This document shows, in pieces, positions 10,667 through 26,763 of a DNA stretch of 64,000 bases (the first letter of the stretch is position 1; every line of letters starts with the position of its first letter). A program made the position numbers and the translations under genes. This DNA comes from a virus. The notes beneath the pieces are model-generated. The model saw only the letters and a program-made list of their open reading frames with translations. It ran no database searches and was not told where the DNA came from. The DNA lies in IMG/VR virus record IMGVR_UViG_2816332652_000003, positions 2,167 to 66,166 of that record. One strand, written 5' to 3'.

Positions 10667-12063
10667 ATATACAGAAGGCAGGCATACCGATCAAAACGCT
10701 TCTGGCTCATTTTTGCAGGCATCGCGCTGCAAGCTGACTGTTAGTAAGATAATATAAATGAATATAGTACACTTTAACTAAAGGTGGTGATTAAATGATT
10801 CTAGCTAAAAAAGTTAGAATTCGACCAACTCCTGAGCAGGAGAAGCAGTTGTGGCGTTCGGCAGGGACGGCTCGCTGGGTCTACAACTTGACGCTTGCCC
10901 GGCAAATAGAGAATTACCAGAATGGCGGGAAGTTCTTGCACGATGGAGTACTGAGAAAAGAGTTGACGCAACTTAAGAAGCGAGAAGAATATGCTTGGCT
11001 GTACGATGTTTCCAACAATGTAGCAAAACAAGCCGTAAAAGATGCCTGCGATGCCTACAAGAAGATGTTCAAAGGACAATCCAAGAAACCGAAGTTCAAG
11101 ATCAAGAAGCGCTCCAAACCAGCGTTCTACAACGATACAGTCAAGTTCAAGGTCAAAGACAGTAAGGTCTTACTCGAAAAAATAGGCTGGGTGGCAACTT
11201 CTGAACAACTTCCAGAATCGGACAAGTACAGCAATCCGCGAGTATCATTTGACGGTAAGTATTGGTACGTATCCGTAGGTATTGAGCAGAAGCAAGAAAG
11301 CTCTGAACTGTCGGACGAGGCGATTGGTATTGATGTAGGTATTAAAGAACTGGCGGTCTGTAGTAACGGAATGGTCTTTAAGAACATCAACAAGACAGCC
11401 GCCGTAAGAAAGACGGAGAAACGATTGCGGAGGTTGCAACGCAAAGTGTCCCGCAAATATGAAATGAATAAGGAAGGAAGCCGTTTCGTCAAGACATGTA
11501 ACATTGTAAAAGTCGAAAATTCCATTCGTTTGCTTCATCGGAGAATAACTAATATTCGCGGCAATCACATCCATCAAGCAACAAACGCAATAGCGAAAAC
11601 CAAGCCTAGCGCTGTTGTGATGGAAGACTTGAATGTTAAAGGGATCATGAAGAACCGATACTTAAGTAAAGCAATTGCAGGGCAAAAACTGCATGAGTTT
11701 ACCCGACAAATGAAATACAAGTGTGAGAAGATAGGCGCAAGGTTTATCCAAGCCGACAGGTGGTTCTCTTCATCGAAATTGTGTTCGTGTTGTGGGCGGA
11801 TCAAGAAAGACTTGAAATTATCTGATCGTACCTATGAATGCGATTGCGGATTCATTATTGACCGAGATATGAACGCGGCAATCAATTTATCTAAATTGGC
11901 GAATTAACACTTACACGTTATCGCTGATATGTAGGATTCGTTGTATCCGAATTTACGCCCTTGGAGTGTTATATCAAACAAAAGTAGTCTCTGGACAAAA
12001 TTGGGCACGAGGAAAAGGGAAGCAAACAAGGATTGTGTAGATTTATACAACTCTTGGCAACGG
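10667..12063 (+). mobile_element. Non-autonomous IS607-type element (tnpB only, no tnpA); left end inferred
   Basis: The right end terminates in ...CTTGGCAACGG (12063), as IS607-family ends typically do. The left end is placed after AAGGAGGG (10659-10666). No transposase ORF is present. Confidence 0.6.
10795..11907 (+). CDS. tnpB: TnpB RNA-guided endonuclease, catalytic residues intact
   Basis: N-terminal HTH; RuvC-I IGIDVG, RuvC-II VMEDL, Zn finger CSCC..CDC, RuvC-III DRDMNAAIN. Confidence 0.95.
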   Translation: MILAKKVRIRPTPEQEKQLWRSAGTARWVYNLTLARQIENYQNGGKFLHDGVLRKELTQLKKREEYAWLYDVSNNVAKQAVKDACDAYKKMFKGQSKKPKFKIKKRSKPAFYNDTVKFKVKDSKVLLEKIGWVATSEQLPESDKYSNPRVSFDGKYWYVSVGIEQKQESSELSDEAIGIDVGIKELAVCSNGMVFKNINKTAAVRKTEKRLRRLQRKVSRKYEMNKEGSRFVKTCNIVKVENSIRLLHRRITNIRGNHIHQATNAIAKTKPSAVVMEDLNVKGIMKNRYLSKAIAGQKLHEFTRQMKYKCEKIGARFIQADRWFSSSKLCSCCGRIKKDLKLSDRTYECDCGFIIDRDMNAAINLSKLAN

Positions 12064-12178: not shown

Positions 12179-12802
12179 TTGAACAACGATGATGTAGTTG
12201 TAGTAGTCAATCGAGAAGATTTCGAGGATACAAATAAAATCATTCAACTTAACTTTTTTTCTGACGTGGACGAAGTAGATATCCGCAAAACCAAATGGTT
12301 ACTTGGAAAATATGTCGACATGGTGGACATTATAAAAAATTATGAATTTTCGCTTCAGCAGATTGAAAACGGGATGTCAGGATACGAGTTATTGTCTGCG
12401 GAGGGTTCGGTTGCTAAACGTGAATCTGGACATGAACTAACTGCTGATGTCACAGCGAACGCGGTAATTATGAAAGACAAGCGGCACGCAAACTACAAAC
12501 TTTATGTAGCAATATCCAACAATGTCCGATTTGCAATAAACAATTTAAGAGATCCACACGAAGGGGTAACAGCTAGATTGCTATTTTTGGAAGGTAAAAA
12601 ATACTTGAAAGCGCAGGAGTATATGGAGAAAGGATATCGAAAGGACGTTCCTGGTATCGCGGCGACTACATTTGCAGATAAGCGGCGCAGGGCCATAGCT
12701 AACATAGCTAACAGTCTTAAATTCAATCGAACTTTAGATTTTGTAGTAATAGATTATGGACGGGGGCGAAGTAAAGAAGGAGAGGTTGGTTTAAAAATGT
12801 AG
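12179..12802 (+). CDS. ArpU/RinA-like late transcriptional activator
   Basis: Position at the end of the early region; C-terminal sigma-region-4-like helix (ARLLFLEG...DKRRRAIANIANSL). Confidence 0.65.
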   Translation: MNNDDVVVVVNREDFEDTNKIIQLNFFSDVDEVDIRKTKWLLGKYVDMVDIIKNYEFSLQQIENGMSGYELLSAEGSVAKRESGHELTADVTANAVIMKDKRHANYKLYVAISNNVRFAINNLRDPHEGVTARLLFLEGKKYLKAQEYMEKGYRKDVPGIAATTFADKRRRAIANIANSLKFNRTLDFVVIDYGRGRSKEGEVGLKM

Positions 12803-12904: not shown

Positions 12905-13732
12905 TTGAATCTTGACGATGATTCTAAAATAAGTCTATTAAGAATTACATTAGGTTATTTAGAAAAAGAATTAAATCGAAAGAAAAATGAAGTGGAGATG
13001 CTAAAGCAGATGCATCAAAACATTAATAAGCTCGGGGCTAAGTTGGAAAGTGTCTTAGTTTTAAATAAATTAGCCACCAAATTAACCATGAATTCTTACT
13101 TTATCCACGCTACTCCGAAAGTCACATATGATGGAATATCGAAGAAAAGACCGGGTGGTATAGAATTTGGAGATGTTCTGTACATTTATACTGAAGGTGA
13201 TAAGCAAAATAAGATTAGAGAGAATGCGATGCTGTATCAGGCAAAATTGTTTAGTTCCAGTAAAGTAGATGAACATCAATTGAAGTTGTATACTAAATGG
13301 TCGCCTTTTAGTCTCCTTAAAGAAAAAAATCGAAAATATGTGTTGAATACTAATTCAAATCCTCATCCAGGAGCGAGATATCTACTCCTAGATACTAGTA
13401 CACTGAACAAAAAATTCGCTTCAACTATGACACCAGAAGATAATCTTAGAGCAAATCGAAATGATAGCTATTTAGAGAATGATTTAGTTGGGTTGTTAGA
13501 TTTTAGTAGAGGGAAAGAGCTGACAGGAGAGTGGGGGGATGCAATAAACAAAGTTAGGGACGAGATAATAACTAATAATCTTTCTAAAAGTGGGTTCGTA
13601 AAAAATCAAGCTCTGTCTTTATTATCAGAAGGACAAGATAATAATTTGAATGAAGAGATTATGAAAAATGTTGATGTAAAAGGTTTTTGGTTAATACATA
13701 TAGTATCTGAAGTGAGTAACACTGTAGATTAA
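12905..13732 (+). CDS. Accessory AT-rich protein with a PD-(D/E)XK-like motif
   Basis: EFGDVLYIY...AMLYQAK; noticeably AT-richer than its neighbours. Confidence 0.55.
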   Translation: MNLDDDSKISLLRITLGYLEKELNRKKNEVEMLKQMHQNINKLGAKLESVLVLNKLATKLTMNSYFIHATPKVTYDGISKKRPGGIEFGDVLYIYTEGDKQNKIRENAMLYQAKLFSSSKVDEHQLKLYTKWSPFSLLKEKNRKYVLNTNSNPHPGARYLLLDTSTLNKKFASTMTPEDNLRANRNDSYLENDLVGLLDFSRGKELTGEWGDAINKVRDEIITNNLSKSGFVKNQALSLLSEGQDNNLNEEIMKNVDVKGFWLIHIVSEVSNTVD

Positions 13733-13774
13733 GTATAGACTAATGAAAAAGTGTAGTTTGTTTGTAGTAAATCC

Positions 13775-13793
13775 ATGTTATCTTAAATCCATA
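13775..13793 (+). promoter_or_regulatory. Late-promoter-like motif, copy 1
   Basis: ATGTTATCTTAAATCCATA (TGn + -10-like hexamer + CATA); similar motifs at 19306 and 22428. Confidence 0.45.
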
Positions 13794-13807
13794 TAATAAC
13801 GTATTCG

Positions 13808-13836
13808 AAAAGGTCGCTCATTCGAGCGGCCTTTTT
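13808..13836 (+). terminator. Intrinsic terminator-like hairpin
   Basis: AAAAGGTCGCTC-ATTC-GAGCGGCCTTTTT. Confidence 0.75.
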
Positions 13837-13853
13837 GCATTGGAGGAAAGAGT

Positions 13854-14024
13854 ATGGAAGTTAACTATTACAGTAGGAATGAGCCAGCTATACCCGGAGT
13901 TTCGGATAAGCAGCCAGAGCAGTGTCGTGGTTGTGGTTGGGGGACATGGACGGGAGTGAATCAATTATGTATTATGCCGAGATGTTGGAAGGAGAACCAT
14001 GATCCAGAGAAGGTGATGAAATGA
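13854..14024 (+). CDS. Cys-rich micro-protein, copy 1 (56 aa)
   Basis: RBS GGAGG; KQPEQCRGCGWGTWTGVNQLCIMPRC; stop overlaps the recombinase ATG. Confidence 0.65.
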   Translation: MEVNYYSRNEPAIPGVSDKQPEQCRGCGWGTWTGVNQLCIMPRCWKENHDPEKVMK

Positions 14025-14581
14025 GAAAAGTACAGCCGATCCGCGATGAACGGGTTATAGATGGAATGAAAGAATACTTCTATATACGAAGTAAGCGAAA
14101 TTACTTATTTTTTTGTATGGGCATATACAGCGGACTTCGAGTATCTGACTTGCTCGAACTCAAGGCGTGGCAAACTAAAGGGACCCATATCAGTATGGTT
14201 GAGCAGAAAAATAAGCATGCGAAGACTTTTATTATCCATCCGAGTATAAGAGAGGATCTGGACGAATTCACTGCTGACATGCGACCAACTGATTATCTGT
14301 TTGCTAGTCGTCAGATTAAAACGATCAGCCGTATGCGAAATAAACCGATCGATCGGACAACTGCCTATCGTTTTTTACACGAAGCAGCTCAGGAATTCAG
14401 GTTAAAGGATATCGGAGTCCATTCATTGCGGAAGACATGGGCATATAGGCTCTACATGGACAATCCTGAGAACCTAGCGTTACTAATGGATATGTTTGGA
14501 CACAGCGATCCAAGGGAGACTTTGGACTATATCGGGCTGACTCAGGACATGATGGACAAGGCAATCTTGAATTTGAGGTGA
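14021..14581 (+). CDS. Small tyrosine recombinase (catalytic domain only, XerC/D-like)
   Basis: GLRVSDLL (R), HSLRKT (HxxR), FGHS, and Tyr in TLDYIG. Confidence 0.92.
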   Translation: MRKVQPIRDERVIDGMKEYFYIRSKRNYLFFCMGIYSGLRVSDLLELKAWQTKGTHISMVEQKNKHAKTFIIHPSIREDLDEFTADMRPTDYLFASRQIKTISRMRNKPIDRTTAYRFLHEAAQEFRLKDIGVHSLRKTWAYRLYMDNPENLALLMDMFGHSDPRETLDYIGLTQDMMDKAILNLR

Positions 14582-14586
14582 ATTTA

Positions 14587-14701
14587 GTGCAACACAATAC
14601 GGTTTATATTGCACTCATTTTTCAATTAGGAAGACATTAGATGAAGAAACATGTTTTTTCATGCCTGAAATGAGTGCAACAGAATTACCTTTATGTTTCA
14701 C
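14587..14701 (+). repeat. Two directly repeated dif/lox-like 11-6-11 sites
   Basis: GTGCAACACAA-TACGGT-TTATATTGCAC (14587-14614) and GTGCAACAGAA-TTACCT-TTATGTTTCAC (14674-14701), 87 bp apart. Confidence 0.7.
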
Positions 14702-14843
14702 TCAACTTACATTATTTAGTGAATATGAGTACAGAACAACAGCCTGCGATTCAGACGGAGGCTTATTTTGATTCGTAACGTTTGACTATTACTGACCTTA
14801 AATAGGAATTCCAACTCAATTACATGAAAGTGGTGATAATTTT

Positions 14844-15572
14844 GTGAGCAGGAAGCAGAATCCGAATCGTAAGAAGGCGTTCAAAATTTGGAAAGATAGT
14901 GGCGCTGTGATGAAGCCGAAAGAGATTGCGGAAAAGTTGGGCATCACATCTGAGTCAGTCCGGAAGTGGAAGTCACTTGATCAATGGGAAGGAAAGATGG
15001 CGAATGCTAAACCCGGTGCTCCTCGTGGCAATCAGAATGCTAAAGGTAATCGAGGTGGTAAAGGCGGTCCGCTCGGGAATCAGAAAGCTGTAACACATGG
15101 ATTGTTCCGTAAGTTCGAGCCGCAAGATCCTGAGTATTTAGAACTCATAGATATTGTTCAGCAAATGGAACCTATAGACATGATCTGGCATAACATCACT
15201 CAGGGATTCCGTAAAATCATTTGGGCGCAGCGTATCTTCTTCATCAAAGACAAAGAGGATATGACGAAAGAGTTGAAAAGGGAGAAACCAGGTGAGTATG
15301 GAGACGAATACGAATGGGAAATTCAATTCGCTTGGGATAAATATGCGAGTTTCATCAAGGCAGAGGCTACAGTCATGCGTGAGATCAGGGGAGCTATCAA
15401 ACAATTCCTTGATATCGCGCCGCAGGAAGATGAGCGCCGATTGAAACTGGATCAGATGCAGGCCAAAGTCGAGAAAACCCGCCTTGAGATTGAAAAACTG
15501 AAGAATGGTGATGGAGATACCGAGGATGATCTGATCGAAGATTGGGTGAAGGCGGTGGAAACTGGTGAGTAA
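14844..15572 (+). CDS. terS: Terminase small subunit
   Basis: N-terminal HTH (KEIAEKLGITSESVRKWK), GAPRGNQNA motif; overlaps terL. Confidence 0.88.
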   Translation: MSRKQNPNRKKAFKIWKDSGAVMKPKEIAEKLGITSESVRKWKSLDQWEGKMANAKPGAPRGNQNAKGNRGGKGGPLGNQKAVTHGLFRKFEPQDPEYLELIDIVQQMEPIDMIWHNITQGFRKIIWAQRIFFIKDKEDMTKELKREKPGEYGDEYEWEIQFAWDKYASFIKAEATVMREIRGAIKQFLDIAPQEDERRLKLDQMQAKVEKTRLEIEKLKNGDGDTEDDLIEDWVKAVETGE

Positions 15573-17019
15573 AGAGTCTCCACAAACTAAACGCAGATTC
15601 GCTGCATTCAAAAAACGTATTCCCGAGTACCGGAAGAATCCGGTTCTTTTTTGCGTGGAATTACTGAAATTTACTCCTGATGAGTGGCAAGCAGAAGTAA
15701 TGATGGACATAGCTGGAGGTCCGCGAGTGTCGGTGCGATCTGGACAGGGTGTTGGAAAGACCGGCCTTGAGGCTGCGGTGGCATTATGGTTCCTATCGTG
15801 CTTCCCGTTTCCGAAGGTTATCTGTACTGCACCGACTCGTCAGCAGTTGCATGATGTCTTATGGGCTGAGATTAGCAAATGGCAAGAGAAAAGTCCGTTG
15901 CTTAAACGGATACTCAAATGGACAAAGACTAAGATTTACATGCGAAATTATGAGGAACGCTGGTTTGCTACAGCCCGGACAGCTACCAAGCCCGAGAACA
16001 TGCAGGGTTTCCATGAGGACTACATGCTCTTTATTGTGGACGAAGCTTCCGGGGTTGAAGATCGTATCATGGAGGCTATCCTGGGGACGCTCTCGGGTGA
16101 ATTTAATAAGCTGCTAATGTGCGGGAACCCAACTCGGACCAGTGGTGTATTCTATGACTCTCACAACAGGGACCGGGCAGATTACAACACGCACAAAGTT
16201 TCCTGTCTGAACAGTCCTCGGACAAGTAAAGAGAACATAGCCATGCTTGAACGAAAATATGGTAAAGGATCTGATGTATGGCGTGTCCGAGTTGAAGGGG
16301 AGTTTCCGCGGGGCGAGTCAGAAACCTTTATCGCTCTGGAAGTGGCTGAGTTTGCTACCAAAGATGTAACCTTGGAACCGTCTGGAGATACCTTAACCAT
16401 CGGCTGTGACGTTGCCCGTTTTGGTGATGATGAAACATCTATGTACGCGGGGATAGGCCCAGTAACAGTTGGGCAGCATCATCATTTCAAGAAAGACACA
16501 ATGGTTACTGCTGGCTGGGTGTTGAACTTAATAAGAGAATTGCTTCCGCAGTTTCCAGAAGTCGTTCATACGAGAATCAGGATAGATGATACAGGTGTCG
16601 GTGGTGGTGTGACTGATCGGTTGAATGAAGTAATAGCAGAAGAAGGACTTCCGTATGAATTAGTTCCAATAAATAATGGATCGTCATCTTTGGATGAACA
16701 TTATGGAAACCTGGGCGCAGAAATGTGGGCGCATATAAAGGGACAACTGGAACAAAACATGAGCAATTATATAAACAATGAGTCCGCGGTCTTACAACTT
16801 CCTGATGATGATGTATTGACCTCCCAATTGACTACGAGAAAATGGTCAATGACCAGCAAAGGTAAGATACTTCTTGAAAGCAAGAAGGATATGAAAAAAC
16901 GTGGTCTCAAGTCACCGGATAGGGCTGACGCATACGTTCTCACCTTTGGTGAATATTTGCTGGGGGCACCTCAGTCAATAATGCTTCCAACAATAGGAGG
17001 TGTATCAATAAAAAGATAA
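15565..17019 (+). CDS. terL: Terminase large subunit (resembles the P1 PacB type)
   Basis: VRSGQGVGKT, LFIVDEASGV, GNPTRTSGVFYDSH, nuclease IGCDVARFGDD, SPDRADA. Confidence 0.95.
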   Translation: MSKESPQTKRRFAAFKKRIPEYRKNPVLFCVELLKFTPDEWQAEVMMDIAGGPRVSVRSGQGVGKTGLEAAVALWFLSCFPFPKVICTAPTRQQLHDVLWAEISKWQEKSPLLKRILKWTKTKIYMRNYEERWFATARTATKPENMQGFHEDYMLFIVDEASGVEDRIMEAILGTLSGEFNKLLMCGNPTRTSGVFYDSHNRDRADYNTHKVSCLNSPRTSKENIAMLERKYGKGSDVWRVRVEGEFPRGESETFIALEVAEFATKDVTLEPSGDTLTIGCDVARFGDDETSMYAGIGPVTVGQHHHFKKDTMVTAGWVLNLIRELLPQFPEVVHTRIRIDDTGVGGGVTDRLNEVIAEEGLPYELVPINNGSSSLDEHYGNLGAEMWAHIKGQLEQNMSNYINNESAVLQLPDDDVLTSQLTTRKWSMTSKGKILLESKKDMKKRGLKSPDRADAYVLTFGEYLLGAPQSIMLPTIGGVSIKR

Positions 17020-17089
17020 CAAGAAACTTTGAAATCATATTAAGAGGGAGGGTGATTATAAAGTAACTTGAATCTTCAATAAAACTGAT

Positions 17090-17391
17090 CTGCTGCGGGC
17101 AAGACGGCAAACGCTACGATTCTTATAGAGAAACAGCGCTGGGTGTACAAAAGATAGGACTTCTATACACACCAGTTGGAAAGGGCGCAGCGGCTAATCA
17201 AAGACGAAGAAGCCCGTAAAGCCGTTGATTACAGATACATTCAAGGTTATTCACGCAAAGAAACGATACTCTTCTTCCGGCGCGCTCTCAATGATAGTAC
17301 AATCAAGCGCAAGATCGATGAGGGGCTGGAGAGTGTCGCAAATACCTTGAAGCTAATCGGCTTTTTTGAGCAAGATGATGCAGAATACTAA
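17090..17391 (+). pseudogene. Relic of a second ArpU-like regulator (5' truncated, internal TAG)
   Basis: KTANATILIEKQRWVYKR*DFY...EGLESVANTLKL aligns by eye with VTANAVIMKDKRHANY...IANIANSLKF of 12179-12802. Confidence 0.65.
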
Positions 17392-17427
17392 AAGAGAAGC
17401 TGACGATTAATCGTCAGCTTCTCTTTT
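17390..17427. terminator. Perfect 38-bp palindrome, bidirectional terminator
   Basis: AAAAGAGAAGCTGACGATT/AATCGTCAGCTTCTCTTTT between convergent genes. Confidence 0.85.
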
Positions 17428-17435
17428 TTGCACTG

Positions 17436-19154
17436 TTATCCTTTAATGAAATCTTGCAGTTCGCTCTTAAAGAATTCCAATTTTTCTGGAGTGTTGTTTA
17501 ACACTAATTCAGTCAGTTCCATTCCATGAACTATTTTATTGTAGTGTAAAGAGTAACTTTCAAATAAGCGTTCTAACACTTCACTTCCAACGACATCTTT
17601 TAATACATTTGTAGAACCTTTTTTAGGGAATAATTTATTGTCATCGATTGATAATAATAAATGGTCGATTTTGCTCTTTATTAGATCTGGATCTGCAGCA
17701 GCTATTGATAAATTTCGATTAATGATTTCAGAAAGCTCATGATAACAGTCTAAAAAGTAGTTCTCGTACTCTCGTCGTCCCAAGATAATTATACTATCTC
17801 CATAGCTTTCTCTTAATGTGAGAAGTTTTTCGTCGGTTTTGTTATCTGCATCAATAATTATTTTATAAGGTATTGGACTCTCTGATATGCCACTTAGAAT
17901 TAAGTCAAGTTTGCCTTTATACGCTCGCATAGAAGAATTCTTATTAAAATAATTACCAGTTCCCTTCATATTTAATATTCTGTAATTATAACCAATCTGT
18001 TTTAAGCCGAAATGAGTGAGGATCATCGGAATTACAAGTTCCTCAGTTTGTCCTTCTACAAATATTACTTTATCAGATAAAGCAAAGTCACTATTACTAA
18101 CACCTATATCAGACAACACTTCTTGAATATGTTCTAACTGTGTGAAGGAACTTATCCCATTCAACTTACTTACATGAATTAAATATTTATCAGATGGATA
18201 ATTAATTAAAATAGGGGAATGCGTAGTGAATACAAACTGGTGTTCATTGCTATCGCTTACTAAATCATAGATGGCCTTCTCGGCAGAAGGATGTAAGAAT
18301 ACTTGTGGCTCATCAAATAGAACTATACTGTTTTCTTTTGTATAGAGTACACACAATAGTAATAAAACGTGAGTATAGCCACTTCCGCAATCTGATAAGG
18401 GAATTGGCGTATCTAAGCCTTCGAAGGATACACTTATAAAAGTCTGGTTACCTCCATCAATAGGAGTCCTAATAGTTATAACGTCAGTAAATATTTGTTT
18501 AAACGTTTCCACAATTTTATCAAAAGTTTCTTCTTCATTATTGTGCATAGAGTAAAGAAACCCATTAAGATTTGTCCCATCAATTTTTAAGTAATTGTTT
18601 AAAGTTGAAGTCTCAGTCGAAGGTACATGTCTAGAACCAGTTATATAAACAATTTTCTTGTTTAAAAGGTTCATGAAATTAGAAATAAATGTACTATTGG
18701 GGACTAATACGCTGTCTTCTTGATCGGGTATCACGAACATATATTTTGGAGCTACTCCAACTTTATGATAATTACTGTTAATGTAAACATCTTGAAAATG
18801 ATCGTTGTAGTATCCTTGTACTTTATTAAAAACTGTCACATTATGACTATTGAAATATCTTAAAAAAAGTCTGAACTTTTCTGAATACTGGATTGTAAAT
18901 CCTGGAGGTACATTATCATTTAGATAATTTACTTCTTCGTCTGACAAGGATAATTCTAATTCAATTTCGGTTGATTGAGTATCTAAGGCCGGGGAGTTTA
19001 GCATACCTTGTAGAACTTTATACAACGCTTCAATGAAAGCTGATTTACCTGTATTATTTTTACCTGCTAAAACATTCATTTTATTATGTAATTTAATCTC
19101 TCCTGAATCATCGATACTTTTGTGATTTTTAATACGAACGTTAAGAATTATCAT
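17436..19154 (-). CDS. OLD-family ABC-ATPase + TOPRIM nuclease (candidate anti-phage gene)
   Basis: Walker A GKNNTGKS, signature LSDCGSG, Walker B LFDEP, H-loop TTHSP, TOPRIM VEGQTEE and IIDAD; start set at ATG 19154 with its RBS. Confidence 0.88.
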   Translation of the reverse strand: MIILNVRIKNHKSIDDSGEIKLHNKMNVLAGKNNTGKSAFIEALYKVLQGMLNSPALDTQSTEIELELSLSDEEVNYLNDNVPPGFTIQYSEKFRLFLRYFNSHNVTVFNKVQGYYNDHFQDVYINSNYHKVGVAPKYMFVIPDQEDSVLVPNSTFISNFMNLLNKKIVYITGSRHVPSTETSTLNNYLKIDGTNLNGFLYSMHNNEEETFDKIVETFKQIFTDVITIRTPIDGGNQTFISVSFEGLDTPIPLSDCGSGYTHVLLLLCVLYTKENSIVLFDEPQVFLHPSAEKAIYDLVSDSNEHQFVFTTHSPILINYPSDKYLIHVSKLNGISSFTQLEHIQEVLSDIGVSNSDFALSDKVIFVEGQTEELVIPMILTHFGLKQIGYNYRILNMKGTGNYFNKNSSMRAYKGKLDLILSGISESPIPYKIIIDADNKTDEKLLTLRESYGDSIIILGRREYENYFLDCYHELSEIINRNLSIAAADPDLIKSKIDHLLLSIDDNKLFPKKGSTNVLKDVVGSEVLERLFESYSLHYNKIVHGMELTELVLNNTPEKLEFFKSELQDFIKG

Positions 19155-19305
19155 TATCTCTACCTCTATTCTTTTTCTATTAAACACAACAATACCATTA
19201 TAGTCCATCTTAGTATGTAATTAAGAGAGTGAATTATTGACCCAAATGAGAACCCTACATGACCTCGTTTAGAGATCATGTTGAACCCCACAAGACTATT
19301 TTCCC

Positions 19306-19325
19306 GTGATACATTAGGAACATAG
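19306..19325 (+). promoter_or_regulatory. Late-promoter-like motif, copy 2, preceded by TTGACCC/TTGAACCC repeats
   Basis: GTGATACATTAGGAACATAG; repeats at about 19238 and 19281. Confidence 0.5.
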
Positions 19326-19460
19326 AAAAAGGTGCGAATGAAATGCACAGCCGCACATACGGCATATGACTGGGACGTTCCTATTCTCGCCTTTTCTATT
19401 TTCAGGATTATCATTCCGTGAGCTTCAACGATATGATCATGTCGAGGTAATGCTCGGTAT
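19322..19460 (+). ncRNA. Putative structured RNA leader
   Basis: Closing stem ATAGAAAAAGG(19322) with CCTTTTCTAT(to 19399) encloses hairpins GCCG-CACATA-CGGC and GTGC..GCAC; a second GAGC..GCTC domain follows. Confidence 0.4.
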
Positions 19461-19503
19461 GATATGTAGCAAGAAGACGTTCCATTGAGAGAGGAGAAAG
19501 ATA

Positions 19504-19767
19504 ATGGATTCAACTATTAATGAGGAATTACAAGAAACAGCAATTGCATTTCTAAAGTGGGCTAGAAACACGCTTGAGAATGAGCCAGCTAATTTCGAAA
19601 CAATGAATTTGGTCCCTCAAGTTTCAGAAGTAGCTTGCACTATAATTACTCACTTAAGAGATCAGGGAGCTGGAGAGAGCCCTGAACATTATGTTCAAAA
19701 GCTCCAGCAACCACAAATAAAAGAATTAATATGTAAGACTATTTCTGAGTCTCTAAATAAGTTGTAA
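19504..19767 (+). CDS. Hypothetical accessory protein
   Basis: Strong RBS GAGAGGAG. Confidence 0.6.
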   Translation: MDSTINEELQETAIAFLKWARNTLENEPANFETMNLVPQVSEVACTIITHLRDQGAGESPEHYVQKLQQPQIKELICKTISESLNKL

Positions 19768-19987
19768 GTTCTTTGTGATATTGTTTTAGAACTTTGTTTG
19801 TCAATGAAGCTGATGCAGCTAATGTAATAGACGAAAGCATAATTAGTTCGGCGCGATCACCTACAAGTGATTGTAAACTTGCATAATTAGGTCCTTTTAT
19901 CGCTTCGTTAAGATTGTCTACAATAGCATCGGTTAATTCGGAAACCAATTCCTTTGTAACTCTATCAAAATCAAATTCAAAACTCAT
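19739..19987 (-). CDS. Hypothetical accessory protein
   Basis: RBS AAGGAGAG on the minus strand; 3' end overlaps 19504-19767. Confidence 0.6.
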   Translation of the reverse strand: MSFEFDFDRVTKELVSELTDAIVDNLNEAIKGPNYASLQSLVGDRAELIMLSSITLAASASLTNKVLKQYHKELTTYLETQK

Positions 19988-20339
19988 GTTTAATCTCTCC
20001 TTAAATAAAGTGTTGTGTGCAAATTACATTTTAGCAGAAAGAGGAAATAGCATGTTGGACTAATTACGAATTAGCAAGCAATCCGTAGTAAATGACGGGT
20101 TTGTTCCAGCTCATCGGGACTCACCCGTTTTCTGTTCCTTGACCTGCATATGGTAGCTTCAGTAAAATGGTCTTGTTCTTCCTCTAAAGTTACATAGTAC
20201 GTATGCATTTAAAGCAAAGAGCGTAGCGTTTTTGCGGCGACCGTTTCGGGCGCATGCTTTTAAGACGTATCACCAACATAATACATATCATTTTAAAGTC
20301 GTTCCTTATGGATCGGCTTTTTTTATTGGAGGAATTGAA

Positions 20340-20495
20340 GTGATCAGCAGCAGAAGACGGAAGAAGCAACGCATCCGTCTCAACAAGCAGCCAGAGAAAT
20401 GCAAAGGATGTGTATGGGGTAGATGGGATGGAGTGAAGCAGTTCTGTAGTAGACCTGTCTGCCCAAAAGAGGTAAAATATCCCTATCATATTTGA
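20340..20495 (+). CDS. Cys-rich micro-protein, copy 2 (51 aa, GTG start)
   Basis: Preceded by a terminator and GGAGG; KQPEKCKGCVWGRWDGVKQFCSRPVC. Confidence 0.65.
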   Translation: MISSRRRKKQRIRLNKQPEKCKGCVWGRWDGVKQFCSRPVCPKEVKYPYHI

Positions 20496-20512
20496 CATGG
20501 AAGGGAATTTAG

Positions 20513-21151
20513 ATGAGCGAAATTGATTATACTGGCTTGCTATTAATACCAGTAGCTACTGCACTCCTTACTACAGGAGCATTGTTAATTAAAGAATGGT
20601 TTCAAAGTAGCAATGCTACCAAAAGGGCTCTAACCGAGAAAAAGTTGGTTGAACTTTACAACCATTTGTACAGCACGGTTATTCGATACGAAGGAAGGTT
20701 GAGCATAAAATATAATAAAGAAGTCTATGATGTTGATCCGAACGGAAAAGAGATGTATAGGGAGATACCTGAGGCCGAAGATCCTGAAGTATGGGAAGAA
20801 GCTATCCAAAACGTCTCAAATGAAATTTATAATAAGATACATCTTTTAGAATATGATGATCTTGTTCTATGGCTTAAAGTTGAAAATGGTGCTCAAGAAG
20901 AATATGCACTGGAAGAACACTCTGTTAATAAAGCCCTGTCATATCGGAATTTTAGCAAAAATGTTAAGAAAAGCTATGGCCGATTATATAACGAATTCCA
21001 TTTAAGCACCCGAAAAAGGAAGAAAGCGAGAATCAAAGATATAAAAATCAGTATAAAGAATTTAAAACGAAATCCGTTTCTTGAGAAAGACGAGCGTAAG
21101 AAACAGAAAAAGAAGTTAAAAAAAGAAATTAAAACTATCAAGAGAACGTAG
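20513..21151 (+). CDS. Accessory protein with N-terminal TM helix and basic C-terminus
   Basis: GLLLIPVATALLTTGALLI; Lys/Arg-rich tail. Confidence 0.7.
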   Translation: MSEIDYTGLLLIPVATALLTTGALLIKEWFQSSNATKRALTEKKLVELYNHLYSTVIRYEGRLSIKYNKEVYDVDPNGKEMYREIPEAEDPEVWEEAIQNVSNEIYNKIHLLEYDDLVLWLKVENGAQEEYALEEHSVNKALSYRNFSKNVKKSYGRLYNEFHLSTRKRKKARIKDIKISIKNLKRNPFLEKDERKKQKKKLKKEIKTIKRT

Positions 21152-21325
21152 CACCCACAGTGGTGCTTTTTCTTTTGCTCTCATATGACAGAATGTGAGT
21201 CGGTTTAAGCTTCTCAGCATGAGAACGTCCGTTTGTAAGGATCAAACCATTGAAGAGCGGAGAACACCGTCTGATTGAGCGTACGCACGAATATGAAGCT
21301 CACCCAAACGTCGAAACCAACTCAA
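21150..21325 (+). repeat. ~175-nt conserved non-coding element, copy 1 (terminator + structured tract)
   Basis: Clearly homologous to 25427-25600. Confidence 0.8.
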
Positions 21326-21392
21326 CACAAATATTTATGTTCCTTCGCTCACATTTTGGAGGAAAAGGCTTGTTTTTGTTGAATTATTGTAG

Positions 21393-21941
21393 TTGAGGAG
21401 GGATTATATGGATATTCAAAAGTATCTTGATTCATTAAACAGCTCTGGTAAACACCATCTCGTTTTGGTTGTTGCTCCTAAAGGTGAATTTCCAACAGAT
21501 ATTATTGATCAAAAGTATTTGATGTTTGAGAAAAGCATTTTGAAAAATCCTAAATCTTATATAGGACTCTATGAAAATGAATTAGATGAGATTATGCAAT
21601 TCACAGCATTTCGGATATTTTTAAAAGATGAAGTAACTGATCACTACAATCTCCCATATAGCACTGTTGAGGGAAAGAAACGCGCGACCTCAGAAGAAGT
21701 TCTGAATTTCTTTGTGGTTAAGGAATTTTATAATCATGTGCCTCATGGAAATAAAAGTGAGGAAGATGCAATAACCGAAGGGACAGAGTCTGGAAGGGAA
21801 TTCCTGAAGAAGTACAATAATGATGAATACGAGTATGTTATCACTTCTTTGGGTAAGCACAGCAATGCTGCAAATGTATTGCTTGATATCAATTTCACGT
21901 CCAACGAGGCTTATCACTTCGACAAGGTTTATATTTATTAA
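21393..21941 (+). CDS. Accessory hypothetical protein (weak likeness to a relaxase fold)
   Basis: EFLKKYNNDEYEYVITSLGKHSNAANVLLDIN resembles MOBP motifs II-III without the His triad. Confidence 0.55.
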   Translation: MRRDYMDIQKYLDSLNSSGKHHLVLVVAPKGEFPTDIIDQKYLMFEKSILKNPKSYIGLYENELDEIMQFTAFRIFLKDEVTDHYNLPYSTVEGKKRATSEEVLNFFVVKEFYNHVPHGNKSEEDAITEGTESGREFLKKYNNDEYEYVITSLGKHSNAANVLLDINFTSNEAYHFDKVYIY

Positions 21942-22029
21942 GAGCTACAACTGTAATATACAAAGATGAAGGACTGACCAAAAGGTTAGTTCTTTTTTTG
22001 TTGCCACATTACTATAGGAGGTAGAGGAT

Positions 22030-22209
22030 ATGAACATCAGAATCGTGCCAATTGATCAGATTAATGCAGCAGCCTACAACCCCCGTGTTGACCTTCAACC
22101 TGGTGATGTTGAATATGAGAAGCTTCGCCGCAGTATAGAGGAATTCGGTTATGTGGAGCCGATTGTCTGGAATGAACTCACAGGGCATATGGTCGTCGGT
22201 CATCAGTGA
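22030..22209 (+). pseudogene. Truncated ParB-like phage gene
   Basis: YNPRVDLQPGDVEYEKLRRSIEEFGYVEPIVWN...VVGHQ then TGA where Arg is expected. Confidence 0.8.
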
Positions 22210-22213
22210 TACA

Positions 22214-22396
22214 AGAAAATACTCAATGAACAGCAAGGGTAAGATATTACTTGAAAGTAAAAAGAACATGAAGAAGCGCGGATTAAAATCACCGGACAGA
22301 GCTGACGCATATGTTCTCACCTTCGGTGAATATTTGATGGGAACACCACAGTCTATAATGCTTCCGTCAATAAGTAGTATGTCAATAAAAAGGTAA
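22214..22396 (+). pseudogene. Second, diverged copy of the terL 3' end (60 codons)
   Basis: 51 of 60 residues identical to the TerL C-terminus; many additional synonymous differences. Confidence 0.92.
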
Positions 22397-22427
22397 ACTG
22401 AAGATTCGATATCTCAGTCTTATAGTA

Positions 22428-22448
22428 GTGATAATATAAAGAGCATAG
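22428..22448 (+). promoter_or_regulatory. Late-promoter-like motif, copy 3
   Basis: GTGATAATATAAAGAGCATAG. Confidence 0.45.
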
Positions 22449-22800
22449 CAAACACACTAAAGGATTGAAGAATGCTTTGGCCCTCCCAAAGGGAAGGTAT
22501 GTTGGCAATCGAATGACCGTGAAACAGCAATACATCTAGGCAGAGAGGTTATGCCCTCTCCGGTGTGCCTAGTGCCCGTTATCGTACTATGACTCAAGCA
22601 TGCTGAGTGACCCAACAAGATTTTTAGTGACATCTTGCAGATGTGGCGGTGTTGGCGTGGGGGAAAGCGGATAGGATAATCGCTATTCTATTGTATCCTA
22701 TCAAGTGTAGCTGGAGGCATGTCCCTCCAAGGACTACTAGAAGGTTTGAATATGCTTTGCTCCTTCTTAGTGAGACATCCAAACGGGTGGTTCTTTTTTG
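22445..22800 (+). ncRNA. Putative large structured non-coding RNA (~350 nt)
   Basis: No credible ORF; at least 7 hairpins in series, ending in a U-tract terminator. Confidence 0.5.
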
Positions 22801-22877
22801 ATACTTGAACAGAGAGGGAACTGGAAGATGTTGTCGAATAATAACTAAAAACATCTAATTAAGGGGTTATAGACAAC

Positions 22878-24209
22878 ATGAAATTTTTATTTCCTGGTTA
22901 TTATAAACTTACTAACGTTGAATTAAGAGAATTGTGGGAAAGATGTAATTTTGTACTTGACACTAATACTCTGCTTAATCTTTTTAGATACCCAAAAGAA
23001 ACGAGTAACGTTATGTTGAAATTGCTCGAAAGTATTAAAGATAGGATTTGGATTCCGCATCAAGTAGCGCTAGAGTATCATAGAAATCTGGAAACGGTAT
23101 TATATGAACAAAAGAATGAGTACGAAACTCTTGAGAAAGAATGTATGTCTGAACTTTCTAAACTTATTTCAAAATTTAAAAAATTAAGACATTCTCATAT
23201 AAGTACTAATACTATGGTGCAGACATTAGAACAAAGTAGTGAAATCATAAGAAAAGAATTATCAAATCAACGTGAACAGCAACCTGATTTACAGGAAATA
23301 AAAAAAAGAATCAACAACTTGGTAGGAGAAAATATAGGATCACAATTTGAACAAGCTGAGTTGGTTAAAATATTCGCAGAGGGGGCTCAAAGGTACGGAA
23401 ATAAAGTCCCTCCTGGATATATGGATTCTAAGAAAAACTTCTCTTACCTTCATAATGGTATTGAATATCAGGCAGCATATGGAGATTTGATTTTTTGGAA
23501 ACAGACTCTAAAATACGCTCAAAATAAAGAGGTTAGTTCTATCATTTTAGTAAGCGATGATAGAAAAGAAGATTGGATTCTAGAAGTATCTGGTGAGAAA
23601 AAAGGAATACATCCGTACTTAACAAATGAATTTCATGATCAAAGCAAAGGTAAGTTATTTAACTCGTATAACTCTGTTCAATTTATTAGTGAAGCTGAGC
23701 ATTTTTTAGGATTTAAGAGTAGTGCAATTGTAAGTGATGTCATAAAGGAAATTGAAACTGTTTATAGTAAGGCGGATTCTTTCAAGGATAGTGAGAATCT
23801 AACTTATAATAATACTTTTAAGGAAAAATATAATTATAGAGAAAGACTCTATGATCATTATCTTGAAGATAAAAAGCGCAGAATAGGTGAAACAGAGTTT
23901 TACTTTTATAAATTTTTCTTTGACGTGAGTAAATCTTTTGTTGAAACAGAGGAAAGGAACAGCAATTCAGTTTATAATTCTAATAATCATAACGCTTTCC
24001 CAGTTATACTTAAAAAAATTGTAAAAGATTATATTATTAATGCCGAAATAGTTGAGATCAAATATGAAGGCGAATTTCTTACTGTAATAGTTGCAACTCC
24101 TTTTGAATTTGAATATTCTTCAATAGATAATCTAGCGGAAGCTATTAGTAAAGAAATGAATCAATACTATACTGAAGAAACTATTAGATTATTAAGAATA
24201 TTTGTCTAG
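22878..24209 (+). CDS. PIN-like domain protein (DUF4935 type), candidate defence RNase
   Basis: FVLDTNTLL, IWIPHQVALEY, YGDLIFW, VSDDRKEDW. Confidence 0.85.
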   Translation: MKFLFPGYYKLTNVELRELWERCNFVLDTNTLLNLFRYPKETSNVMLKLLESIKDRIWIPHQVALEYHRNLETVLYEQKNEYETLEKECMSELSKLISKFKKLRHSHISTNTMVQTLEQSSEIIRKELSNQREQQPDLQEIKKRINNLVGENIGSQFEQAELVKIFAEGAQRYGNKVPPGYMDSKKNFSYLHNGIEYQAAYGDLIFWKQTLKYAQNKEVSSIILVSDDRKEDWILEVSGEKKGIHPYLTNEFHDQSKGKLFNSYNSVQFISEAEHFLGFKSSAIVSDVIKEIETVYSKADSFKDSENLTYNNTFKEKYNYRERLYDHYLEDKKRRIGETEFYFYKFFFDVSKSFVETEERNSNSVYNSNNHNAFPVILKKIVKDYIINAEIVEIKYEGEFLTVIVATPFEFEYSSIDNLAEAISKEMNQYYTEETIRLLRIFV

Positions 24210-24590
24210 TAATTTAACTATGTTAAAACATTCTCTCTTTAATGAATGGTTTCTTTTATGTGTTCCGTGTTAAAGGTAAAAGCTTTCCAAAATGACCCTG
24301 ATATGTGACAGCTGAATTAGTAAATCAATATGCATACAAGAAGTGATATTAATTTGAATCTCGGCAAGAATAATGTGCCCTTTAATAGTCGATGGCCATT
24401 TCTAAGCCTGCATTCCCAATTGATTATGAAAAGAGGGGGAGGGAAAGAAAATGCCTAAAGTTACGTATAGATCAAAATTTTAGATGCCGCTACAGCTGAG
24501 GATGGGACAATAGATGAGTACAGTATGGGTTAAACCTATTGGAAAGCGACACCTAAGTTCGGATGCAATCAAAGAGCCACCTGTACCTTG

Positions 24591-24680
24591 ATGCAACCAG
24601 ACAAATGCAAAGGTCTCGTATGGGGCAGATGGGATGGAGTAAAGCAGTTTTGTAGTAATCCCTTTTTTTGAAAAATTTAA
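24591..24680 (+). pseudogene. Cys-rich micro-gene, copy 3 (degenerate)
   Basis: MQPDKCKGLVWGRWDGVKQFCSNP; the second Cys is replaced by Leu and the last Cys is missing. Confidence 0.7.
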
Positions 24681-24710
24681 AATAAACAAAATGAAGGGGG
24701 TGAGAGTGAC

Positions 24711-25427
24711 ATGGATAAACGGAAAGATTTATCAGCGCTGACTAACTTACTTGAAATTGATCCTGAATCGACTTTTAGCACAGCAATTGAATATACTATA
24801 AACCAGATGCCTTTTATAGGAAAGGTGTACAACACTTTGAAAATGAGGGCATTTGAGAAGAAAATAAATCGCTTAGAATCAAGATTGCATGTCTTATCTA
24901 ATCATTTATTGGAAAGGCCTGACGACCTCGTTAGTCAGTTCATTAAAAACAGAGCATTTCCCTTTATGTTAGATCAATTGTTAGAAGAACAACAAGAAGA
25001 AAAAACAGATTTGATAATGAATGGAATAGAATACATTTATGAACAAAGAATAACTGAAGAAAATAAGATGTTAATGCATTTTGATATTCTAAAAGAACTA
25101 AGAGTCAATGAGCTTAAATTCCTCTTAAGATTTACAGAGGAAGCTAAAGAAGTTGCTAGTAAAGAAGATCAACATGAGGAACCATCAGAAGATGAATGGA
25201 TTTACTATGAGTACATTATGACTCATCTCGAAGCACTAGGACTTATTGATACAGACGAAAGTTCTATTAATGTAACCAAGTTTAATATTGTAACTATTTT
25301 AAATGATATAGCTGCTAGTAAAGGGAAATATACCATACGTGCAACTCGACCGAGGCTAACAAAATTCGGGCATGAGTTTGTGAAATTTTTCGATTTAAAG
25401 TCATTAATAAGATTACCTGCACAGTAA
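24711..25427 (+). CDS. DUF4393/Abi-alpha-like accessory protein
   Basis: MPFIGKV...DILKELRVNELKFL...HLEALGLI...RLTKFGHEFVKF winged-helix-like ending. Confidence 0.55.
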   Translation: MDKRKDLSALTNLLEIDPESTFSTAIEYTINQMPFIGKVYNTLKMRAFEKKINRLESRLHVLSNHLLERPDDLVSQFIKNRAFPFMLDQLLEEQQEEKTDLIMNGIEYIYEQRITEENKMLMHFDILKELRVNELKFLLRFTEEAKEVASKEDQHEEPSEDEWIYYEYIMTHLEALGLIDTDESSINVTKFNIVTILNDIAASKGKYTIRATRPRLTKFGHEFVKFFDLKSLIRLPAQ

Positions 25428-25600
25428 GCACCCAACCGTGGTGCTTTTTCTTTTGCTCTCATATGATTAATATGAGCCGTTTTAAGCTTTATTCAGCAAG
25501 AATGTATTTGCAGGGATCAACCCGTTCAAGAGCGGAGAAGAGGCGCTGAGTGAGCGTATCCACGAATATGAAGCTAGTTCAGAAGTTGAAACCAACTCAA
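25427..25600 (+). repeat. ~175-nt conserved non-coding element, copy 2
   Basis: Homologous to 21150-21325. Confidence 0.8.
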
Positions 25601-25664
25601 TTTAAATAAGGATATTTTTGTTTATTTATAGTAAAATAATTACAAAAAATTAGGAGTTGGTATA

Positions 25665-26483
25665 GTGAGCACGTTTACTCAGAAGGAAGTCAAAAGAGCC
25701 ATCAGAGATTTTGAAGTTATTGCGACTTCTTTACTTAATGCTTCTTCGACTCATTTTTCAGCTAGAGTCACTCAATTTATTGATTTTATAGAAAGGAACC
25801 TTGTTATTAACTCAGTCCTAGGAGAATACCTTAATCTCCCAATAAATATTGAAGATATTGAATCGGATGAATCTGGGTGGTTACAGGTTTCTCTGCCTTC
25901 TGAGATGGACTATCAGATCGCATACATTTTACAGACTCTTGTATCTTTTAGACGGGATGAGAATGCTGTAATTAACTACACATTCCATCTATATAAAAAT
26001 AAAGGTATAGATTATAATATTCAATTATTTAATGAGGATATGTTGCAACCGATTGTACGGGAGATTTTTAATAGGTTAGAGGATTTAGTTGAAGACGAAG
26101 TTGAGGGGAAGGATAATATCCCGAGTTCCTCCTTATCTATTACACATATTGGAGATATTATCGCACATACAGGTAGTAATATTGCAGTAGGCAAGAACAT
26201 AACTCAAAATTTGAAAACAGGTGACATACGAACTGAAATCATAGATAAGCTCAAGGAACAAGGTGCTATTCCTGAAGATAAGATATCTGAAGTAGAGCCA
26301 ATAATTGCTGAGATTGAAGAGGTGTTAAGTGATGAGAGTAACCCTAATTCCGGAAAATTAAAAGATTTAGTTGGGAAAGTATACAACCTTGGAAAAAACG
26401 CTGCTTTAACTGTATTTAAGGATACTATAAAAGATCCACGCTGGTCTTCAGCTATCGCAGATTTCTTCCTTGGAGGAAACTAA
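25665..26483 (+). CDS. Accessory hypothetical protein
   Basis: 272-aa AT-rich ORF with RBS; no recognised motif. Confidence 0.7.
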   Translation: MSTFTQKEVKRAIRDFEVIATSLLNASSTHFSARVTQFIDFIERNLVINSVLGEYLNLPINIEDIESDESGWLQVSLPSEMDYQIAYILQTLVSFRRDENAVINYTFHLYKNKGIDYNIQLFNEDMLQPIVREIFNRLEDLVEDEVEGKDNIPSSSLSITHIGDIIAHTGSNIAVGKNITQNLKTGDIRTEIIDKLKEQGAIPEDKISEVEPIIAEIEEVLSDESNPNSGKLKDLVGKVYNLGKNAALTVFKDTIKDPRWSSAIADFFLGGN

Positions 26484-26763
26484 GATAAAAAGTTGCGATA
26501 CTATAAATAGTTGTTGACTTATCAGCAAAGAAAAGTCATTCCAACATTAGCGGTAAGATGCTTAATATAAACATAATCAAATCATGCTGTGATGGGAGAC
26601 TGTTGCAACTTTTTTTAGTGGGGGGGAGGTATGAGGATTGATGATTAAATCCGTAGTAACACTATAGTAACTCGATGATATTATTAATCCATAGAAGTAT
26701 GAAGAACTTTAGAAGGTAAGGAAACTTTTCCTGCCTTCTATTTTTATGTCTGGAGGTGAAACA

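Follow-up and report, generated by a model that had tools for sequence, protein, structure and literature searches.

In the model of Hendrix, Juhala and Pedulla, the mosaic joints and gene remnants of phage genomes arise by illegitimate recombination and are followed by homeologous exchange. Unequal crossing-over at microhomology is a general mechanism of tandem duplication. In this work we analyzed a 64,000-nt stretch (the window) of the IMG/VR virus record IMGVR_UViG_2816332652_000003, positions 2,167 to 66,166, which makes up most of a 67.5-kb provirus and in which the 3′ end of the large terminase gene, terL, recurs 5.4 kb downstream, directly behind a truncated ParB gene. The phage of the window is called W below; L with a number denotes a related locus and G052 a Paenibacillus genome. 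The nearest relatives of W are prophages of the Paenibacillus amylolyticus/xylanexedens group, and a megablast search of phage GenBank records with positions 14800-27000 gave no match.

Relaxed homologous exchange has an experimental basis (PMC2327257, PMC3945230): phage recombinases can recombine DNA that is ∼20% diverged (PMC2327257), and defective prophages are a source from which phages gain DNA by such relaxed recombination (PMC3945230). In E. coli, the element e14 (and phage 21) is found in the 3′ end of icd, with a displaced icdC fragment (PMC13626634, citing Hill et al., 1989). Defence hotspots are known from prophages such as P2/P4 (bioRxiv 10.1101/2021.01.21.427644). An original prediction, made from the letters of W alone, had proposed Campbell-type integration: a phage circle, collapsed by a ParB-to-terL deletion at microhomology, would have entered by a single crossover in the terL tail and could leave again with terL intact.

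The terL Tail Is Duplicated Behind a ParB Stump

The gene order of the region is ORF207, cargo ORF275, a Cys-rich ORF, a tyrosine recombinase, the small terminase gene terS, terL, ∼9.7 kb of accessory genes and the portal gene; features are on the + strand unless stated otherwise. The functional terL gene (15565-17019; phrog_2, E = 1e-46; phrog_5902, E = 1e-79) encodes 484 aa and is 92-97% identical at the aa level to Paenibacillus prophage terL genes; its last part, 16833-17019, is tail A. A repeat search paired 16833-17036 with 22210-22413 (204 nt, 79% identity, spacing 5377 nt), and self-BLAST aligned 22210-22396 (tail B) with tail A in direct orientation at 81.3% over 187 nt (E = 3e-45), so that the predicted duplication of the terL 3′ end was borne out. 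The pair is not due to chance, since it is the strongest repeat within the window. In the terL frame each tail has 61 codons plus stop, and 52 of the 61 residues are identical; the original prediction had counted 51 of 60, a figure that needs this small correction. The tails differ at 35 nt, the differing codons being 20 synonymous and 9 non-synonymous, and the longest identical stretch common to both is 12 nt. The stretch was found in public sequencing runs as 20 rows from 11 studies, all of them Logan contigs and none listed as RNA. Contigs from independent runs, which may stem from the same or near-identical strains, bridge both the joint of tail B with the DNA before it and the joint of tail A with the DNA after it; the duplicated tail is therefore not an assembly artefact.

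Tail B is preceded directly by a ParB N-terminal stump (22030-22209; phrog_620, E = 1.5e-17), which ends GHQ-TGA and forms the right scar of the unit. The stump has 59 codons, compared with 175-432 in full-length ParB; its match to PF02195 (E = 4e-4) lies under the gathering score, and it is 81-85% identical at the aa level to the full-length ParB or ParB-methylase genes of L073, L132 and L141. Translated in the ParB frame, the joint gives GHQ-TGA-YKKILNEQQG, and in the terL frame it gives TRKYSMNSKG, just as first described. We aligned it side by side with nine full-length ParB genes and eight primary terL tails. The ParB DNA that encodes GHQRYKIMVNEQG and the terL-tail DNA for TRKWSMTSKG are alike over ∼27 nt, each being read in another frame, and within this look-alike patch (22207-22236) the change-over from ParB-specific to terL-specific bases lies inside the shared (GA)TACAAGA, a microhomology of 7-9 nt. 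In L006 and L007 the joint is CAG-CGA-TACAAGA-AAATGG, in which the left-hand bases fit ParB alone, the right-hand bases fit terL alone and those in between fit both; L006 and L007 keep CGA (Arg), the codon from which the TGA of W and L008 is derived. Because the switch of bases falls in the shared motif, the microhomology joint that had been postulated holds, and it is an illegitimate joint between otherwise unrelated genes. The stump is not the sole ParB-like sequence of W, as the early region encodes a 380-aa full-length ParB_N-domain protein (667-1809) together with a separate N6/N4 DNA methylase (8522-9643).

The joint recurs, identical to the base, in at least five other places: the IMG/VR proviruses L006, L007 and L008, of which L006 was also met in a second collection as L087 (Paenibacillus sp. 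PAMC 26794), and G052, one more of 93 Paenibacillus species genomes screened. The cargo on both sides differs in every case, and the spacing from tail to tail ranges from 4.2 to 6.3 kb. A joint found in several prophages, each time with different cargo, argues for an inherited scar rather than a recent insertion, and the discrete 5.4-kb mobile or defence unit of the original prediction has to be given up, as cargo and length change around a constant joint. The orthologous fragments have gained disabling changes, namely a 10-nt deletion in tail B of L007, loss of the tail B stop and a 1-nt insertion in the stump of L008, and deletions of 45 nt and 1 nt in the stump of L006; this damage also speaks against the recent event that had been supposed. 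In the four proviruses the stump and tail are conserved from the ParB ribosome-binding site to the terL stop, with unrelated DNA outside. The copy in G052 (L171, G052:C1:853000-872500, reverse strand) is a degraded remnant that has neither terS nor portal and retains of terL only residues 377-484; behind these last 108 codons it keeps the phrog_21810 relic described below, a 4.2-kb cargo segment and an intact-looking stump and tail, and it may serve infecting phages as a reservoir for exchange. In our view the ParB stump and the second terL tail are a scar without function that illegitimate recombination has left, passed on within a few Paenibacillus prophages and slowly decaying there; we give this reading, together with the history set out below, a probability of roughly 55%.

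The Segment Between the Tails Resembles a Stranded Pre-terminase Region

In the distant relatives L073, L132, L141 and L112 (Z-type; terL 58-62% identical), a full-length phrog_21810 gene and the ParB or ParB-methylase gene are separated by cargo that varies and measures 2-4 kb; some small genes come next, then terS and terL, with portal immediately behind terL. The earlier statement that in the wider family the usual place of ParB is upstream of terS-terL was correct. Positions 17095-22209 of W hold a phrog_21810 relic, cargo, the anchor sequence R3 (with a further anchor, R2) and ParB in the order and orientation of the Z-type region upstream of terS. In gene order, 17095-22209 thus corresponds to a foreign pre-terminase region that has been cut at both ends. 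Its left scar, the relic (17095-17391), begins 75 bases past the terL stop; it is truncated at the 5′ side to its last ∼98 codons, carries an in-frame TAG at 17155-17157 and matches residues 69-166 of the L073 gene (59-559) at 70% identity (tblastn, E = 1e-43). W also has a resident full-length gene of this family, ORF207 (12179-12802; phrog_21810, E = 1.7e-5), which heads its own pre-terminase region, is kept at 84-95% in close relatives and is 24-28% identical to the 166-aa proteins of L073, L132 and L141; a Pfam search with these 166-aa proteins gave no family, and the labels "ArpU" and "late regulator", given to the gene by its position, found no confirmation. Just upstream of ParB in L064, L065/L114 and L134 we found homologues of the unit cargo or of the gene family that precedes the stump in relatives.

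A fuller version of the same region is present in L011 (terL 81% identical), whose terL-portal island contains a phrog_21810 relic, R3, R2, a ParB-methylase region, an ORF of ∼70 aa and a 27-codon terS start. The ParB-methylase region is split over three reading frames and is probably frameshifted; the terS relic shares 78% identity with the terS of L141 and does not resemble the terS of L011 itself. The reading that fits best is a second packaging module of the Z type, of which these pieces remain behind the working terL. Shorter phrog_21810 relics lie 3′ of terL in L007, L086, L009 and L142, and on account of these relics the terL-portal island across the group looks like a stranded pre-terminase region. 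In distant relatives such as L102 the portal gene adjoins terL directly.

Recombination Through the terL Tails

The terL tails are a patchwork of blocks held in common with the tails of other phages, and their identity matrix is mosaic and not clade-like. Compared with tail B of L008, the first 115 nt of tail B show 2 mismatches and the remaining 72 nt show 15 (Fisher p = 1.5e-5); the final 37 nt agree with the primary tail of L006. The identity between W and L086 falls from ∼95% to ∼80% at ∼16773, ∼60 nt upstream of tail A; the terS-terL region is mosaic throughout, and W DNA from 16702 through the phrog_21810 relic is also found in G052. Breakpoints in tail B and close to tail A indicate that downstream arrays have been exchanged via the terL 3′ end, as had been suggested, and the pattern agrees with the experiments on relaxed phage recombination. 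The mosaic of other phages' tail blocks, together with the silent differences, supports the further claim that tail B came from the terL of a functional relative and is not a fresh local copy.

Proposed Formation of the Locus

Three steps would account for these observations. In step 1, an ancestral terS-terL module would have been placed upstream of the pre-terminase region of another phage, as the collinearity suggests. That foreign region would have held a phrog_21810 gene, variable cargo with R3 and R2, ParB(-methylase), terS′ and terL′; the joint would have cut into the phrog_21810 gene, the redundant second terminase would have been lost, and the remaining "ghost" region would have become the accessory/defence island between terL and portal. 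In step 2, an L011-like genome would have undergone unequal crossover between ghost ParB codon ∼59-62 and W-type terL codon ∼423 at the 7-9 nt microhomology, the partners being two genome copies or a co-infecting relative. A joint of the tandem-duplication type would result, stacking terL - array 1 - ParB stump | terL tail - array 2 - portal; the joint is observed, and the crossover is the mechanism that we infer for it. In step 3, the cargo of both arrays would since have been replaced at anchors (terL tails, ParB stump, R3, R2 and portal leader), a turnover by recombination with relatives that is supported by the mosaic patterns. The terL gene would have stayed intact because every exchange fell in or after its last ∼60-80 codons. 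Stacking predicts the order R3 then R2 in both arrays, which is found at 20387-20451 and 21150-21333 in the first array and at ∼24593-24657 and 25427-25608 in the second. The terL genes that accompany this ParB type diverge from that of W over the last ∼20 aa, whereas tail B follows the W type to its end; this speaks more for a crossover partner with a W-type terL than for a cis deletion. Unequal crossover is the simplest account, and deletion in cis and a circle with Campbell integration would give the same final order.

Several points weigh against this history. Step 1 and the order of events are a reconstruction, no genome with two intact terminase modules was found, and L011 may have acquired its ghost independently. 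Array 2 of W has neither a phrog_21810 relic nor ParB, both of which simple stacking would at first provide, so that one must suppose that they were lost. The stump-tail island is conserved at 79-92% nt identity, like the neighbouring working genes, which could reflect recent spread or some selection and not long neutral decay. The same joint might also have formed recurrently at the 27-nt look-alike patch, as only W and L008 share derived changes that prove a common ancestry. Finally, the public runs consist of contigs only, in which rare excision may be hidden.

The final order could instead be reached by collapse in cis, in which a tandem double packaging module with a W-type terL′ suffered a deletion from ParB codon ∼59 to the terL′ tail; the ParB C-terminus, terS′ and the terL′ body would have been removed, tail B would be the remnant of terL′, and array 2 would have come later. 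The joint is exactly the deletion joint expected from the canonical order with ParB upstream of terS-terL, remains of a second module do persist behind terL in L011, and packaging limits would be expected to select for loss of a redundant module. Yet the sole second-module terS relic seen, that of L011, is Z-type, and the stump is closest to the ParB that accompanies Z-type terL although tail B is W-type throughout; no W-type terL with an upstream ParB was found among 160 loci, and the repeated R3-R2 skeleton of array 2 is left unexplained, so we regard this route as doubtful. The integration proposed in the original prediction, of a circle made of tail, cargo and ParB stump by one crossover in the terL tail, reversible and with terL intact, gives the same end topology as unequal crossover. 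In an L011-like genome, with ParB downstream of terL, a crossover of ParB x tail could set such a circle free; the G052 unit, flanked by terL 3′ fragments, is a possible donor; breakpoints do lie in or near both tails; single-tail relatives exist; and icd/icdC around e14 shows that a hybrid essential gene survives excision (PMC13626634). Two rare steps are needed here, however, where one suffices, the unit contains no integrase, replication gene or att core, and the old joint is common to several prophages with different cargo each time, so that the supposed unit does not travel as a unit; with stump and tail decaying in several relatives as well, we judge this integration to be improbable.

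The segment was searched for the properties of an integrative or excisable element. The tails flank it as direct repeats (16833-17019 and 22210-22396, 81%), the arrangement that Campbell integration leaves. No recombinase domain was detected by Pfam, PHROGs or PADLOC in any ORF of 17020-22209, and there is no att core, as the identical runs shared by the tails do not exceed 12 nt. The sole nearby tyrosine recombinase (14021-14581, 186 aa) lies outside the segment, upstream of terS. It consists of the catalytic domain only (phrog_216), and two similar 32-nt direct-repeat sites stand behind it (14586-14617 and 14673-14704); no further copy of these sites occurs in the window and none at the unit borders. 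Four runs with intermediate word shares were aligned to 14000-27500; the low-coverage contigs span both joints, and neither a deletion joint nor a circle joint was seen in them, although contigs hide rare forms and the stretches that they leave uncovered carry no information. Structural variants were rejected as the cause of the intermediate word shares, which reflect low coverage. Related phages without the insert had been foreseen, and the single-tail loci L086, L088, L089 and L090 do exist, but they carry other cargo there and present no empty site; the same element was not seen both present and absent at this site, the joint being common and the cargo different. We concluded that the 5.4 kb between the tails is not self-mobile. 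A collapsed whole-phage circle does not fit as donor, as the unit reaches no further than from the phrog_21810 gene to ParB, and tail B has the W-type sequence of the resident terL; ready reversible excision finds no support in a segment with no integrase, no att core and tails with at most 12 identical nt in a row, the absence of an excision joint being weak evidence since contigs hide rare forms.

The sharp edges of conservation in four proviruses, from the ParB ribosome-binding site to the terL stop, and an nt identity like that of working genes (79-92%) could also mean that the stump-tail island is kept by function, either as a selected homology adaptor that connects the island to two pools of cargo or because an 81-aa ORF (22151-22396) makes a TerL C-terminal peptide that would interfere with packaging by related superinfecting phages. 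A GAGG motif stands 9 nt upstream of the ATG at 22151, and the tail frame is open in W, L008 and G052. The frameshifts, deletions and lost stop in L006, L007 and L008 speak against a conserved protein, recombination with the full-length ParB and terL of relatives would give sharp edges anyway, and selection for evolvability is expected to be weak in general; selection of either kind therefore appears very unlikely to us. A protein-coding role of tail B or the stump was rejected because the orthologous copies are broken. Somewhat less remote, and still improbable, is a broader idea, in which the island is a retained homology adaptor and serves as an integron-like accretion point that needs no integrase, or, in a bolder variant, encodes an 81-aa TerL C-terminal decoy. 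If it is an adaptor, the stump would recombine with the pre-ParB cargo of canonical phages and the tail with the post-terL islands of close relatives, so that whole defence arrays could be stacked and swapped behind an untouched terL; if it is a decoy, the tail-ORF product would block packaging of related phages. The inherited, decaying scar left by unequal crossover is the reading that we retain.

Cargo and Neighbouring Genes

A perfect palindrome of 19+19 nt (17390-17427), found by the repeat search and self-BLAST between the phrog_21810 relic and the first cargo gene, is likely a two-way terminator. The first cargo gene (17436-19208, − strand) encodes in a single gene an OLD-family ATPase plus TOPRIM nuclease of the Old/GajA type (PF13175, E = 9e-22; PF20469, E = 1.4e-6), with PADLOC matches to GajA, Old, AriA and HEC-01A at E = 1e-21 to 1e-25; it was not found in any relative examined. 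It is followed by a small Cys-rich ORF (20232-20495) that contains anchor R3a (core 20387-20451). Cys-rich (CxxC...C...C) ORFs occur three times in the window (13854-14024, 20232-20495 and ∼24590-24660), each just upstream of a different gene (recombinase, ORF212 and ORF238, respectively), and the 65-nt R3 core is also present in L006-L012, L086-L090, L142 and the pre-terminase region of L073. ORF212 (20513-21151) had no family match in Pfam, PHROGs or PADLOC; a homologue, 47% identical, lies directly upstream of ParB in L064. Anchor R2a (21150-21333), a terminator hairpin plus ∼160 nt of conserved non-coding DNA, matches R2b (25427-25608) at 79% (E = 8e-34), and R2 was found in L006, L007, L008, L086, L088, L089, L090 and L011. 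R2 is ∼185 nt long, with the hairpin at the stop of the upstream cargo gene and conserved blocks thereafter, and is kept at 74-86% in at least seven relatives with different flanking genes (L006 15592-15777, L007 14941-15110, L008 15506-15692, L088 17194-17338 and L090 18755-18920, for example); its role may be that of a regulatory leader or just of an anchor for recombination. ORF182 (21393-21941; no family), followed by a terminator at 21968-21995, has homologues, 40-41% identical, between terL and portal in L018 and L021.

Tail B is separated from the second array by a ∼480-nt tract (22397-22877) that is non-coding, hairpin-dense and GC-richer, and whose first ∼290 nt align with the DNA after the primary terL tail of L006 (74% over 304 nt, E = 5e-44). 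An Rfam scan of 16500-27000 (E ≤ 1) returned two chance-level matches and none for this tract or R2. The second array (22878-26483) consists of a PIN_8 protein (22878-24209; PF18476, E = 3e-55), R3b, ORF238 (24711-25427), R2b and ORF272 (25665-26483), the last matching the PADLOC candidate PDC-M14B (E = 8e-17). ORF238 has a weak match to phrog_11520 and may be a partner of ORF272. The paired cargo ORFs of the two arrays (212 vs 238 aa; 182 vs 272 aa) show no homology to each other: the arrays have their skeleton in common and not their cargo. The island is bounded on the right by the portal gene (26746-28212; phrog_3753, E = 8.5e-68), and terL (92-97% aa) and portal (93-95% aa) are conserved around variable cargo, with no cargo ORF of W common to L006-L008 or L086-L090. 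A defence role of the cargo is plausible from family and position. The terL-portal island of L088 contains three tandem paralogous cargo genes (13248-15889; 207, 287 and 275 aa, 50-56% mutual identity). On the left side, terS (14844-15572; PF10668, E = 4.7e-17) precedes terL, and a TnpB/Cas12f-like gene (10795-11907; OrfB_IS605 plus TNB domain) lies inside the prophage with no adjacent tnpA.

Comparison With Known Systems

The locus provides a worked example of how a phage accessory/defence hotspot can originate and grow. For annotation, the second terL tail and the ParB stump should be treated as relics, neither genes nor att sites, and the terL-portal genes of this Paenibacillus phage group are a good place to seek new defence systems.

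Prophage hotspots such as those of P2/P4 share with the W locus a fixed site between conserved phage genes and a different defence-like cargo in each relative, in W an OLD-family nuclease, a PIN_8 protein and a PDC-M14B-like protein. The W site differs in its position between terL and portal, in its internal anchors (R3, R2 and stump-tail), in its two tandem arrays and in its apparent descent from the pre-terminase region of another phage. The likeness to e14 in icd, formally the nearest analogue, lies in an essential gene whose frame is complete, a diverged copy of its 3′ end beyond the insert and the functional hybrid gene to which loss of the insert would lead. Unlike the W segment, e14 encodes an integrase, excises upon SOS induction and has a defined att core; in W a microhomology joint fuses the far copy to a ParB stump, the content varies in relatives and the relics are decaying. 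As in a tandem duplication, the joint reads downstream ParB and then upstream terL tail, and the arrays are alike in skeleton order; in contrast to a simple one, the cargo copies are not alike and the tails differ by 19%, which would mean either that two different phages were the partners or that exchange with relatives later overwrote the copies.

The locus agrees with the model of phage mosaicism, with its joint at a few bases of microhomology between unrelated genes, gene relics flanking an exchanged block and later breakpoints within conserved, diverged sequence; the defective remnant in G052 carries the same block. The W locus departs from the usual case in that both scars survive, the 5′-cut phrog_21810 gene and the 3′-cut ParB, that a fuller intermediate is preserved in L011 and that the captured region is an accessory hotspot. 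With both scars and the L011 intermediate, steps of mosaicism that are usually postulated can be read directly from the sequence. The locus is thus phage mosaicism of a known kind, unusually well preserved, and no new kind of mobile element.

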